DNA of 64,000 bases from Alphaproteobacteria bacterium (lineage in GTDB: Bacteria > Pseudomonadota > Alphaproteobacteria > Rs-D84): assembly GCA_017960855.1 (NCBI GenBank), contig JAGCYJ010000008.1:44654-108653 (forward strand). Reading direction: 5' to 3'. Shown here piece by piece: positions 3,598 to 4,956 of this stretch. The notes under the pieces are model-generated. The model worked only from the letters and a program-made list of their open reading frames with translations, was not told the DNA's origin and made no database searches. Positions within the stretch are counted from its first letter, which is position 1. Each line of letters begins with the position of its first letter. A program made the position numbers and the translations under genes.

Positions 3598-4098
3598 CTA
3601 GCGATGCCGCCCATGGCGGACAGTTGAATATCTGTGTTTACGAATATTGCTGTCTGCTTGATCGCACTTCCTTTTTAACTCTTCTGTGTCGTGCCCAGAA
3701 ATCGTTTCGGTACGATACAAGTGGTGTTTCTTGGGTCTTTCCTTTACAATCGTTGTCGGGGTGCTGACAACTAATTCAGGTATTTCGTTCCCTTTTTCGG
3801 AATTACATTGTTTATGCATCGGTTGCAAGTTCGCGATTGCGTCAGTTCCACCCTTGGAACGCGGCACAATGTGGTCAATAGTCAGTTCTTCTTGGTTCCT
3901 AATTGCTTGACGGCAATAGGGACATACTGGATATACAAAATTGTCTATGGCGATACGATACAATATACGCAGTTTATAAATGTTATATTCACGCATGCGT
4001 ATCATCTGGCGCAGTTGTTCAGATTGCTTTGGTGTAATGGTCGTCTTACAATTTTTCTGAATATATCTAACAATCTGTCGTATGCCATAAGAATCCAT
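3598..4098 (-). CDS. HNH endonuclease-domain protein (166 aa).
   Basis: It has the C-terminal motif CPYCRQ...DHIVPRSKGGTDAIANLQPMHKQCNSEKGN, the classic HNH / His-Me finger signature. It sits 15 nt downstream of the radical-SAM gene on the same strand. Confidence 0.75.
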   Translation of the reverse strand: MDSYGIRQIVRYIQKNCKTTITPKQSEQLRQMIRMREYNIYKLRILYRIAIDNFVYPVCPYCRQAIRNQEELTIDHIVPRSKGGTDAIANLQPMHKQCNSEKGNEIPELVVSTPTTIVKERPKKHHLYRTETISGHDTEELKRKCDQADSNIRKHRYSTVRHGRHR

Positions 4099-4113
4099 TT
4101 TTCTCCCCCTATA

Positions 4114-4956
4114 TCAGTGTTTTCGTTGTTTTGATTTTTGTTCTAGAATTTTTATACAATCGCCCAGCGGTCGCCCGTTCATGACAAGTGCATTGATATG
4201 ATTAAGACGCACACGATCTTTTGCATCTATCATTATACAATCACCATAAATGTCCGATTGCCCCGTCAGGTTAAATGTTCCAAGTTTGTTTGCCCGCGCG
4301 CGGCCGATATTCGCAATGGCTTGATTAAAATTATAAATAATAGGATACCTAGAAACACCATCGGTTATGTACTGTCCAGATATGTCTTTGCCCCAGATTA
4401 TACCATACCCCGAAGATGCCATGAACAAATCATAAAAGGAACGCACAGAGTTGTTTTTGATTCCCTGCAATACAACAGTTATGTATTTGGCACAAGTTGG
4501 ATTATTCAATAATGAACGGTATATCTTCGCAACCGCAGCAAAGTTCTTGTGGAAACGGTCTAATGATACATCCATTATCACTTTTTTGCCATTGTCACCA
4601 GCAACATCTGTAATAGTTGACAGTATGCGATTCATAAGGTTTTCGTCATTACCCCATATGCCATTTGTTTTTAAGCACGGGGTCATGTTCTCGTTAAAAA
4701 TGATTTGCAGGGCTGATGGGATATATGTGTCATCATAAGAATAATAGGGCGCCATAACTTCGCCACCGGTTAGTGCCACCGTATCATACTTTTCAATTGG
4801 CAACGCATTAAATTCGCTTAAATACAGTGCCATCTTGTCCAAATTCATAAGGTTTTGCTGGTATTCTGGTCCAGATTTTTCACAGCAATGGGCACAAGAC
4901 AAATTGCACCAATTGGTCGTTTTGAACGCAATACCGGTTTTTTTCGTATCAGACAT
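4114..4956 (-). CDS. Radical SAM domain protein of 280 aa, small uncharacterised subfamily. Paralog of 52701..53567.
   Basis: The N-terminus carries FKTTNWCNLSCAHCCEKSGP (CX3CX2C) and ~45 aa later a TGGEVMAPYY glycine-rich SAM motif. It shares the motifs TNWCNL, GGExMAPY, IPxAL, KTNxxWG and NGRPLxD with the second copy. Confidence 0.75.
   Translation of the reverse strand: MSDTKKTGIAFKTTNWCNLSCAHCCEKSGPEYQQNLMNLDKMALYLSEFNALPIEKYDTVALTGGEVMAPYYSYDDTYIPSALQIIFNENMTPCLKTNGIWGNDENLMNRILSTITDVAGDNGKKVIMDVSLDRFHKNFAAVAKIYRSLLNNPTCAKYITVVLQGIKNNSVRSFYDLFMASSGYGIIWGKDISGQYITDGVSRYPIIYNFNQAIANIGRARANKLGTFNLTGQSDIYGDCIMIDAKDRVRLNHINALVMNGRPLGDCIKILEQKSKQRKH

Follow-up and report, generated by a model that had tools for sequence, protein, structure and literature searches.

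Does the tight packing of a small radical-SAM enzyme and an HNH nuclease-domain protein on one strand of an alphaproteobacterial contig mark a dedicated two-gene system, or do the two genes merely share a variable chromosomal site? We addressed this question in a 64,000-nucleotide stretch of contig JAGCYJ010000008.1 (GCA_017960855.1; hereafter the window), from an Alphaproteobacteria bacterium of the Rs-D84 lineage. The comparison set comprised 60+ related loci from gut Alphaproteobacteria of Candidatus Enterousia/Rs-D84. Features of the two loci of interest are collected in Table 1.

Table 1. Features of locus 1 (lysM to tRNA-Gly) and locus 2 (rSAM2 and P400), in window coordinates.
Feature	Position	Strand	Description and basis
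Promoter-like site 5' of LysM gene	6185-6156	minus	Consensus pattern match
LysM protein	4965-6125	minus	386 aa; membrane-anchored; ORF and Pfam LysM, 44.5 bits, residues 338-384
rSAM1 (radical-SAM protein)	4114-4956	minus	280 aa; ORF
HNH protein	3598-4098	minus	166 aa; ORF; Pfam HNH, 55.4 bits (cut-off 21.4)
tRNA-Gly(CCC)	3470-3543	minus	ARAGORN
Terminator-like hairpin just 3' of tRNA-Gly	3443-3460	minus	Consensus scan; pattern match only
Terminator-like hairpin ahead of rSAM2 promoter-like site	52622-52646		Pattern match
Promoter-like site 5' of rSAM2	52664-52691	plus	11/12 consensus matches
rSAM2	52701-53567	plus	288 aa; 35% identical to rSAM1, E 1e-50; 308 bits vs family HMM
P400	53573-54775	plus	400 aa; N-terminal domain, YYxxN(K/R)ExI helical repeats, C-terminal Cys4 domain

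Coordinates and sequence agree with the layout given in the first-pass annotation, in which four minus-strand genes follow one another with gaps of 8 and 15 nt and end in tRNA-Gly. The gap between the LysM stop codon and the rSAM1 ATG reads gtattaaa, the gap between the rSAM1 stop codon and the HNH ATG (tatagggggagaaaa) holds a GGGGGAG Shine-Dalgarno-like run, and 54 nt separate the HNH stop codon from tRNA-Gly(CCC). The LysM gene appears to be the first gene of a lysM-rSAM1-HNH-tRNA operon, and the hairpin beyond the tRNA is the probable end of this transcription unit. Co-transcription of rSAM1 with lysM and HNH is probable.

The sequence of rSAM1 holds complete CX3CX2C cluster-binding and GGE SAM-binding motifs. 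Both motifs had been read from the single genome, and across the family they are invariant or close to it: C17/C21/C24 are kept in 52 of the 53 family members and the GGE (residues 64-66) in all 53. Further conserved positions are KTN..W, S131-x-D133-x-F-H136, G218-R-A220 and D244, and the general Pfam Radical_SAM profile matches weakly (26.3 bits; cut-off 29.5). The enzyme is also small and devoid of a SPASM domain, as first proposed. In the 53-member alignment, only the cysteines C17, C21, C24 and C25 are conserved family-wide, SPASM or twitch cysteines are lacking, and NCBIfam matches to SPASM families score 12-26 bits and are confined to the first 60-100 residues. Three cysteines (C155, C240 and C267) lie in the C-terminal half of rSAM1, none of them conserved across the family; C240 is kept in 31/34 short-form as compared to 1/19 long-form members and is Ser in the ortholog of the relative L001. 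Measured against that ortholog, rSAM1 has a dN/dS of 0.17, as compared to 0.01-0.04 for DnaK, PFK and LysM, and it is under purifying selection.

By both sequence profile and fold, the nearest characterised relative of rSAM1 is EpeE/YydG of Bacillus subtilis (PDB 8AI1-8AI6; TIGR04078). YydG is the best NCBIfam match for both paralogs in the window (45.2 bits for rSAM1 and 42.2 for rSAM2), far below the cut-off of 300, in line with the earlier statement that rSAM1 fits no described family. A profile search of the PDB returned YydG/EpeE at E 1e-14 over about 170 residues. When the rSAM1 AF2 model (pLDDT 90.4) was searched with Foldseek, the top nine matches were all EpeE (TM 0.54-0.56, best E 3e-10). 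C17/C21/C24 and the GGE of rSAM1 align with the CNASCDHCC and TGGE of EpeE, and the two proteins have in common CxxxCxHCC, (F/L)TGGE, NGxWG and SxDxxH. The rSAM family and EpeE are likewise alike in length (about 280-320 aa) and in having the cluster motif right at the N-terminus. The resemblance is nonetheless remote, with an identity of only 17-18% and a TM of 0.56.

EpeE uses Cys223 as its catalytic hydrogen-atom donor, and the epeXEPAB/yydFGHIJ operon encodes a small precursor peptide along with a protease and an ABC exporter. In addition, the extended twitch (T-SPASM) domain at the C-terminus of EpeE houses an auxiliary [4Fe-4S] cluster (PMC13012085), for which rSAM1 lacks the cysteines. 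Taken together, rSAM1 is best placed, on these sequence comparisons, in a lineage-restricted, uncharacterised EpeE/YydG-like family that is devoid of the auxiliary-cluster domain. Because its N-terminal 200 residues and its fold are closest to those of a RiPP epimerase, rSAM1 most likely acts on a peptide or protein by hydrogen abstraction. The enzyme would reductively cleave SAM, and the resulting 5'-deoxyadenosyl radical would abstract a hydrogen atom from this candidate substrate in a reaction that proceeds without an auxiliary [4Fe-4S] cluster. In the short-form subfamily alone, C240 may serve as the hydrogen donor. The peptide substrate is an extrapolation, since the EpeE link is remote and the auxiliary-cluster domain is missing. 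A family with the EpeE-type core motifs but no such domain provides a natural system for probing why the auxiliary cluster is needed.

Two readings of the enzyme compete with an uncharacterised family. In the first, rSAM1 would be a RiPP maturase of the classical kind that, like EpeE, epimerises a small precursor peptide encoded nearby. This would suit a protein whose nearest characterised relative, in both sequence and fold, is the RiPP epimerase EpeE/YydG, and C240 could take the hydrogen-donor role of EpeE Cys223. We nonetheless consider it quite improbable. An EpeE-type operon is missing at the rSAM loci: a search for short conserved reading frames (15-90 aa) up to 450 nt from the rSAM gene, in about 50 loci, gave only out-of-frame shadows of neighbouring genes, many of the gaps measure only 1-20 nt, and neither a protease nor an ABC exporter was found near the rSAM gene at the related loci. 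The small-ORF result led us to drop the idea of an adjacent precursor. Moreover, the auxiliary cluster is absent, the family score lies far under its cut-off, and the partner protein of the rSAM, where there is one, has about 270-580 aa, as compared to the 49-aa peptide of EpeE. Such a partner raises the prospect of a new protein-directed radical modification. Still less credible, to the point of being very improbable, is a diverged viperin, QueE, NrdG or PflA, that is, a nucleotide-acting enzyme or an activase. These families resemble rSAM1 in size (about 250-300 aa) and in lacking auxiliary clusters, and the substrate of PflA is a protein. Prokaryotic viperin (pVip), also a radical-SAM enzyme of ~300 aa, shares some similarity in its partial TIM barrel and is the sole, weak PADLOC match of the enzyme (21.5 bits, E 3e-5). 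The Foldseek scores of viperin (TM about 0.42-0.44), PflA (0.37-0.42) and QueE (0.39) all rank below those of EpeE, however. The viperin profile NF038283 gives 19.4 bits against a cut-off of 180, QueE, NrdG and PflA give no NCBIfam match at E<=0.1, and no NrdD, PFL, que or kinase gene lies near the rSAM gene in the window or at related loci. Unlike pVip, rSAM1 has no nucleotide-kinase neighbour and sits in a core-genome context. None of the four families named for comparison in the first-pass annotation therefore fits.

Across the comparison set, the stretch from lysM to tRNA-Gly is a variable slot. Its left anchor is the LysM protein (61-95% identity), with the synteny dnaK, pfk, lysM in 20+ loci; its right anchor is tRNA-Gly(CCC). 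Among 16 related lysM loci scanned, 14 have this tRNA 3' of the slot and only L018 and L024 do not. The slot adjoins dnaK/pfk and rpsP-rimM-trmD, and its genes sit in a core-genome context. The LysM protein itself was ruled out as a substrate of the rSAM enzyme: its conservation is high, and genomes that lack the rSAM gene retain it unchanged.

The contents of the slot vary independently of one another. In four loci (L062-L065), HNH follows LysM directly, with 15-19 nt between them and no rSAM gene; the HNH proteins of these loci are 57-59% identical to that of the window, as compared to just 48% for the nearest rSAM-bearing relative, L001. Conversely, more than 20 loci have an rSAM gene without HNH, seven species among them (L014, L017, L019, L021, L024, L025 and L027). 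In five further species (L016, L018, L020, L023 and L026), the order is flipped, with HNH upstream of the rSAM gene. L017 and L018 share 95-97% nucleotide identity, and L017 differs by a 340-nt internal deletion in HNH that leaves the rSAM gene and the gene 3' of it, P400, intact; here a terminator-like hairpin and a consensus promoter lie between what remains of HNH and the rSAM gene. Outside the lysM locus, rSAM paralogs are never accompanied by HNH. Where the two do co-occur, they are always immediate neighbours, with gaps often of only 1-23 nt. The HNH sequences fall into 35 clusters (42-67% identity), as compared to only 6 for the rSAM1 clade.

The HNH protein of the window has a canonical HNH core (PF01844), and C59, C62, D75, H76, N90, H95, C98 and N99 are invariant among 12 aligned family members. 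Nucleotide identity of this gene to L001 is 42-68%, between flanks of 92-98%. The protein matches many phage HNH PHROGs, and PADLOC gives only domain-level matches (Cas9, PtuB and PDC-M01B), with neither PtuA nor other defence partners found in PADLOC-DB 2.0. It shares its core and its invariant catalytic and zinc ligands with free-standing phage HNH and McrA-like HNH proteins, and their sporadic distribution and hypervariability as well. It differs from them in that its place on the chromosome, between lysM and tRNA-Gly in a genome under 1 Mb, is fixed, and in having no association with an intron, an intein or a phage. The HNH gene is a fast-diverging, dispensable and independently distributed occupant of the slot.

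These distributions bear directly on the suggestion of the first-pass annotation that rSAM1 and HNH form a defence or nucleic-acid-modification module, in which the enzyme would mark DNA or a nucleotide by modification and the nuclease would cleave nucleic acid that is foreign or lacks the mark. That suggestion was to be given up if the adjacency proved not to be conserved in other genomes, which is what the neighbourhood comparison shows. Several observations do speak for a module: the spacing is tight and includes the Shine-Dalgarno-like sequence, the two genes are immediate neighbours, on either side, in about 10 species, both change far more rapidly than the flanking sequence, and helical repeats of the kind found in P400 also occur in GIY-YIG, Endonuclease VII and HNH proteins. 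Set against these, each gene is kept without the other, the HNH core was lost from L017 with the rSAM gene intact and a hairpin and promoter lying between them, and HNH is never found beside rSAM paralogs elsewhere. PADLOC offers no complete catalogued system (PADLOC-DB 2.0), only the weak pVip and generic HNH-domain matches, and none at all for LysM and P400; viperin and QueE were rejected; and in the core-genome context of these genes, tblastn found no phage or plasmid homologs of rSAM1 and no phage homologs of P400. The only system that a literature search on rSAM+HNH defence brought up, Ophion (rSAM+PHP+PRTase), is unlike locus 1. An obligate pair is unsupported, and phyletic independence largely refutes the dedicated module, which we regard as highly doubtful. 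The tight gaps and the Shine-Dalgarno-like run leave room for some functional interplay between HNH and rSAM within the window clade. A different reading, compatible with independent slot occupants, takes HNH for a homing-endonuclease-like selfish gene or an exchangeable nuclease allele that is kept by recombination and touches the rSAM gene incidentally. This is a tentative possibility. It would explain the sharp drop in identity to L001 between conserved flanks, the sporadic presence, absence and repositioning of the gene, the internal deletion in L017, the second HNH paralog past the tRNA in L007, L013, L062 and L063, the phage HNH family matches and the adjoining tRNA. It sits less well with the same position of HNH in every close relative of the window that was sampled, with its invariant catalytic residues and with the lack of a recognisable extra DNA-binding module.

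We consider it moderately probable that the slot holds two independently varying units, HNH and rSAM, that the regular partner of the latter is elsewhere P400, and that their adjacency in the window is positional. In this arrangement, a reduced-genome lineage of gut Alphaproteobacteria (Candidatus Enterousia/Rs-D84) would carry, as one unit, a small free-standing HNH endonuclease with its catalytic residues intact, a very high rate of divergence and occasional deletion of its gene. The other unit would be the radical-SAM enzyme of about 280 aa, from a lineage-restricted family with P400 rather than HNH as its regular partner. In the window clade, the rSAM gene would lie between lysM and HNH without P400, in a positional contact rather than a dedicated two-gene system. 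HNH is gained and lost independently of rSAM. The result counsels caution: close gene spacing in a single genome did not signal a conserved functional module here.

The second locus of the window identifies this regular partner. rSAM2 is followed after 5 nt by P400, and rSAM2 orthologs in L035 and L066 share the same adk ... corA context. P400 lies directly 3' of a short-form rSAM gene in 15 loci, including locus 2 of the window, often with overlapping stop and start codons, and the pairing is retained in at least three genomic contexts. rSAM1, with HNH downstream, has no adjoining P400. A 12/12 promoter match lies ahead of the rSAM gene of the L017 pair, and the rSAM-P400 unit apparently has a separate promoter, judging from this and the promoter-like site 5' of rSAM2. 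Long-form paralogs stand alone among housekeeping genes in unrelated contexts (dnaG/topA, bamD/murJ and xseB/infC) that offer no clue to function, without P400. With neither these nor rSAM1 having P400 alongside, P400 is not the substrate of every family member.

The first-pass annotation had noted a paralog at 52701 followed by a Cys/His-finger protein and had taken the pairing for a repeat of the rSAM-nuclease arrangement. The paralog is genuine and its partner tightly linked; that partner, though, contains no recognisable nuclease or known zinc finger. P400 has four invariant C-terminal cysteines (C311, C345, C356 and C369), and its AF2 model is all-helical (pLDDT 83). It has no match in Pfam, NCBIfam, PADLOC or PHROG, and Foldseek of the model against the PDB gave none either (best E 3.5). 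A profile-profile comparison found P400 unrelated to the HNH family (probability 1.9%), and the partners at loci 1 and 2 are thus not homologous nucleases. Its central helical repeats resemble the repeat region of the homing-endonuclease-type proteins P0224, P0227 and P0231, all three with an N-terminal GIY-YIG-like motif (Pfam PF01541 is on record for P0231 only), as well as the repeats of P0235 (Endonuclease VII), P0236 and P0238 (HNH). Unlike homing-endonuclease-type proteins, P400 has no recognisable nuclease domain, an N-terminal domain of its own and a Cys4 C-terminal domain without a PDB match.

A P400-type protein is the best candidate for the substrate of the radical-SAM enzyme, and this is the weakest step of the proposal. 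A bolder version, which we think unlikely, is that the short-form enzyme and P400 constitute an undescribed two-component system of Rs-D84, in which the enzyme modifies a full-length protein post-translationally or is targeted to nucleic acid by the repeats. If so, an EpeE-like enzyme would have dispensed with its auxiliary cluster, the homing-endonuclease-type DNA-binding repeats of P400 would do the targeting, and rSAM1 with its hypervariable HNH neighbour could be a derived offshoot of the rSAM-P400 system. At least two fast-evolving rSAM paralogs are present per MAG in genomes under 1 Mb; under this version, their number and rapid evolution would point to an important, possibly conflict-related, lineage-specific function. 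Whichever function they serve, these uncultured gut bacteria retain, in their small genomes, several fast-evolving paralogs of an orphan enzyme together with a hypervariable nuclease that occupies a single, defined site on the chromosome.

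The gene order described at locus 1 by the first-pass annotation was borne out in all details by ORF calls, sequence and Pfam, including the spacings and the cluster motif: a LysM protein, the radical-SAM protein rSAM1 and an HNH protein lead into tRNA-Gly(CCC). Direct reading of the window sequence gives 8 nt between lysM and rSAM1, 15 nt between rSAM1 and the HNH gene (holding GGGGGAG, a Shine-Dalgarno-like run) and 54 nt between the HNH stop and the tRNA gene. A promoter-like site 5′ of lysM and a terminator-like hairpin directly 3′ of tRNA-Gly, both pattern matches only, fit a putative single transcription unit spanning lysM, rSAM1, HNH and the tRNA. 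Both C17-x3-C21-x2-C24 and G64-G65-E66 are present in rSAM1. Against Pfam Radical_SAM it scores weakly (26 bits, under the 29.5-bit cut-off), and the Pfam HNH match of the neighboring protein is solid (55 bits). The second radical-SAM protein, rSAM2, is a true paralog of rSAM1 as had been proposed (35% identity, E 1e-50), and the 400-aa protein P400 starts 5 nt later.

Positions of features in the window and in related loci
Feature	Locus	Position	Strand	Source
Partial second copy of 805-aa protein gene	window	3-735		blastn
805-aa repeat protein	window	790-3207	-	
tRNA-Gly(CCC)	window	3470-3543	-	tRNA prediction
HNH protein, 166 aa	window	3598-4098	-	ORF call
rSAM1, 280 aa	window	4114-4956	-	ORF call
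LysM protein, 386 aa	window	4965-6125	-	ORF call
GC-skew switch	window	~33000-35000		2-kb composition profile
Giant ORF, 2356 aa	window	44424-51494	+	
rSAM2	window	52701-53567	+	
P400	window	53573-54775	+	
Putative secreted protein, 107 aa	window	55848-56171	+	
Glu/Thr/Val-rich protein, 767 aa	window	57289-59592	-	
HNH remnant, 25 codons	L017	5813-5890		
Counterpart of HNH remnant	L018	1912-2340		
Second HNH gene	L007	6551-7808 (HD-domain gene included)		
Second HNH gene	L013	7442-8768 (HD-domain gene included)		
Second HNH gene	L062	6685-7305		
Second HNH gene	L063	6904-7503		
573-577-aa protein	L014	4176-5897		
573-577-aa protein	L021	2495-4228		
573-577-aa protein	L067	2081-3808		
Split rSAM	L067	3891-4756		

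The proposed rSAM and HNH module is not supported, as its neighborhood is not conserved in relatives. Genes were called and clustered across all fetched loci. Two fixed anchors, lysM and tRNA-Gly(CCC), bound a stretch whose content is variable; outside them lie dnaK/pfk to one side and rpsP-rimM-trmD to the other. The order rSAM then HNH is confined to the window clade (L001-L009, L013). Other loci have HNH then rSAM, with or without a P400 homolog (L016, L018, L020, L023, L026), rSAM with or without a P400 homolog and no HNH (L014, L017, L019, L021, L024, L025, L027), or HNH only (L062-L065). The last arrangement, which we regard as decisive, was found by searching with the HNH protein itself; this search returned 35 clusters (42-67% identity), a number well beyond that of the rSAM1 clade. 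All three of the longest contigs examined read dnaK-pfk-lysM-HNH-tRNA-Gly without an rSAM, with a lysM-HNH gap of 15-19 nt. These HNH-only genomes and the rSAM-bearing L007 are equally near to the window (DnaK ~95%), and the window HNH is 57-59% identical to their HNH proteins as compared to 48% for the closest relative, L001. Loci L017 and L018 share 95-97% nucleotide identity, and L017 is missing 340 nt of the HNH core with rSAM and P400 intact. The in-frame deletion leaves a short ORF that joins the first five HNH codons to the basic C-terminal tail, and between this remnant and rSAM lie a terminator-like hairpin, which is palindromic, and a promoter with a perfect match, TTGACA-16-TATAAT. 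Given the HNH-only loci, the HNH-less rSAM loci and the HNH loss in L017, the two genes are independently distributed; they occupy a common variable chromosomal slot in which HNH evolves independently.

In several relatives the nuclease content of this slot reaches past tRNA-Gly, where another HNH gene, a paralog of 199-206 aa, is found, along with a small HD-domain gene in L007 and L013 (187 aa as called in L007). A 573-577-aa protein between lysM and rSAM in some species is a further variable occupant; the L014 copy, when scanned, had no Pfam match.

Compared with L001, dN/dS was 0.012 for DnaK, 0.043 for PFK, 0.037 for LysM and 0.17 for rSAM1, while HNH had a dN of 0.49 with saturated dS. 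Nucleotide identity runs from 92-97% in lysM to 65-88% in rSAM and 42-68% in HNH, then back to 92-98% in the tRNA. On these dN/dS and identity values, rSAM1 is a functional yet fast-evolving gene. The HNH gene, with all catalytic and zinc-ligand residues retained, either is hypervariable or has been replaced by recombination. Its tempo agrees with an exchangeable, selfish or conflict-related nuclease and does not demonstrate a link to the rSAM.

In every family library, the nearest family for both rSAM paralogs was the YydG/EpeE RiPP epimerase, with 45 and 42 bits where the cut-off is 300. These scores are far under membership, and the earlier statement that the rSAM matches no described family thus stands. 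The suggested likeness to viperin fails: the family model gave 19 bits against a cut-off of 180, and PADLOC returned a weak pVip match only (21.5 bits, E 3e-5). The QueE, NrdG and PflA family models matched neither paralog. Searched against the PDB, the rSAM family profile found YydG/EpeE at E 1e-14 across ~170 residues, and both share the distinctive motifs CxxxCxHCC, TGGE, NGxWG and SxDxxH. The AlphaFold2 model of rSAM1 (pLDDT 90.4) is a confident partial TIM-barrel closest to EpeE, which accounts for the top nine Foldseek matches (E 3e-10, TM 0.54-0.56); GDGT-MAS, viperin (TM ~0.42-0.44), anSME, PflA and QueE rank well under it.

Two features define EpeE: the hydrogen donor Cys223 and an extended twitch domain that holds an auxiliary [4Fe-4S] cluster (PMC13012085). 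In contrast, only C17, C21, C24 and C25 are conserved among 53 rSAM family members, which makes an auxiliary cluster impossible and agrees with the first-pass view that a SPASM domain is absent. The family thus joins a core of EpeE type to a C-terminal domain that is different and carries no cluster, and is therefore a variant rather than a member of EpeE. The radical-SAM cluster and SAM motifs are intact, and the rSAM is under purifying selection. C240 is kept in 31 of 34 short forms (the ~280-aa kind, including rSAM1 and rSAM2) but in 1 of 19 long forms.

The recurrent partner of this family is the orphan Cys4 repeat protein P400. In 15 loci, the gene directly 3′ of a short-form rSAM is of the P400 type, and its start codon often overlaps the rSAM stop codon. 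This pairing occurs in the lysM slot, between adk and corA (window locus 2 and orthologs L035 and L066) and elsewhere (L015, L030, L033). In the window, a terminator-like hairpin after adk and then an 11/12 promoter match precede rSAM2. No P400 gene adjoins rSAM1 there, and the long-form paralogs have only unrelated housekeeping genes around them. In L067, the rSAM 5′ of a P400-like gene is broken into 173-aa and 105-aa ORFs, reflecting either a pseudogene or a frameshift in the assembly; the 173-aa part still matches Pfam Radical_SAM.

In P400, a conserved N-terminal domain is followed by helical YYxxN(K/R)ExI repeats (~residues 130-300) that vary in number, and then by a C-terminal domain with four invariant Cys; its predicted model is all-helical, with no PDB match. 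The partner at locus 2 had been called nuclease-like, but P400 has no match in Pfam, NCBIfam, PADLOC or PHROG, and its profile does not resemble that of the HNH family. The repeats recur in unrelated proteins with an N-terminal GIY-YIG-like motif (P0224, P0227 and P0231; PF01541 on record for P0231 only), an Endonuclease VII domain (P0235) or HNH domains (P0236, P0238), and this co-occurrence suggests a nucleic-acid-binding module of homing-endonuclease type. In such proteins, YYxxN(K/R)ExI may represent a hitherto undescribed type of DNA-binding repeat. In the 581-aa homolog P0209, the entire repeat and Cys4 unit is duplicated.

Taken by its relationship to EpeE, the rSAM would cleave SAM reductively, and the resulting 5′-deoxyadenosyl radical would take hydrogen from a peptidyl substrate, with C240 of the short forms as a possible hydrogen donor. 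More speculatively, that substrate could be the P400-type protein. The same relationship could point to a classical RiPP maturase, but the vicinity of the rSAM lacks conserved small ORFs, proteases and exporters. Among rSAM defence systems, our literature search found only Ophion, whose architecture is unlike this locus. A further reading, which strikes us as rather unlikely, takes rSAM-P400 as a new radical system that is directed at protein or nucleic acid and is specific to gut Alphaproteobacteria with reduced genomes. The rSAM family itself is lineage-restricted, uncharacterised and EpeE-like, without an auxiliary-cluster domain.

Close relatives of rSAM1 form only six clusters in a search of 5.8 billion proteins; beyond them lie a sister clade and 315-380-aa Alphaproteobacteria MAG proteins that align full length. 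When 1.84 billion representatives were searched exhaustively with a profile, 55 proteins scored E<1e-30. Scanning 185,579 species genomes gave 49 loci, nearly all of them in MAGs of rumen or gut Alphaproteobacteria, many of which bear the name Candidatus Enterousia. Several MAGs hold at least two paralogs, and this 64-kb window alone has two. No homologs of rSAM1 were found among phages or plasmids, and none of P400 among phages. The lineage of these MAGs, order Rs-D84, has genomes of <1 Mb and lacks the TCA cycle and respiration (PMC12306168).

Several other features of the window were observed. The 805-aa protein has ~25-residue 'KLSGDLDFSGVK.L.L' repeats and no Pfam match; its L001 counterpart has 1155 aa and is just 47% identical, with flanking genes 94-99% identical. 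The giant ORF, which has no Pfam match at E<=0.01, contains numerous 'LTSIP..LFSGI.G.PA..MF..TF..C' repeats as well as Cys-rich modules of the form 'CGAGTC.SGTCQC'; it resembles a repeat protein of surface type. The 107-aa protein is His-rich with a C-terminal run of seven His, the 767-aa protein has a single TM segment, and neither has a family match. GC skew is negative from 8 to 34 kb and positive from 34 to 44 kb, and the cumulative-skew minimum near 34 kb may mark a replication-related or strand-bias switch.
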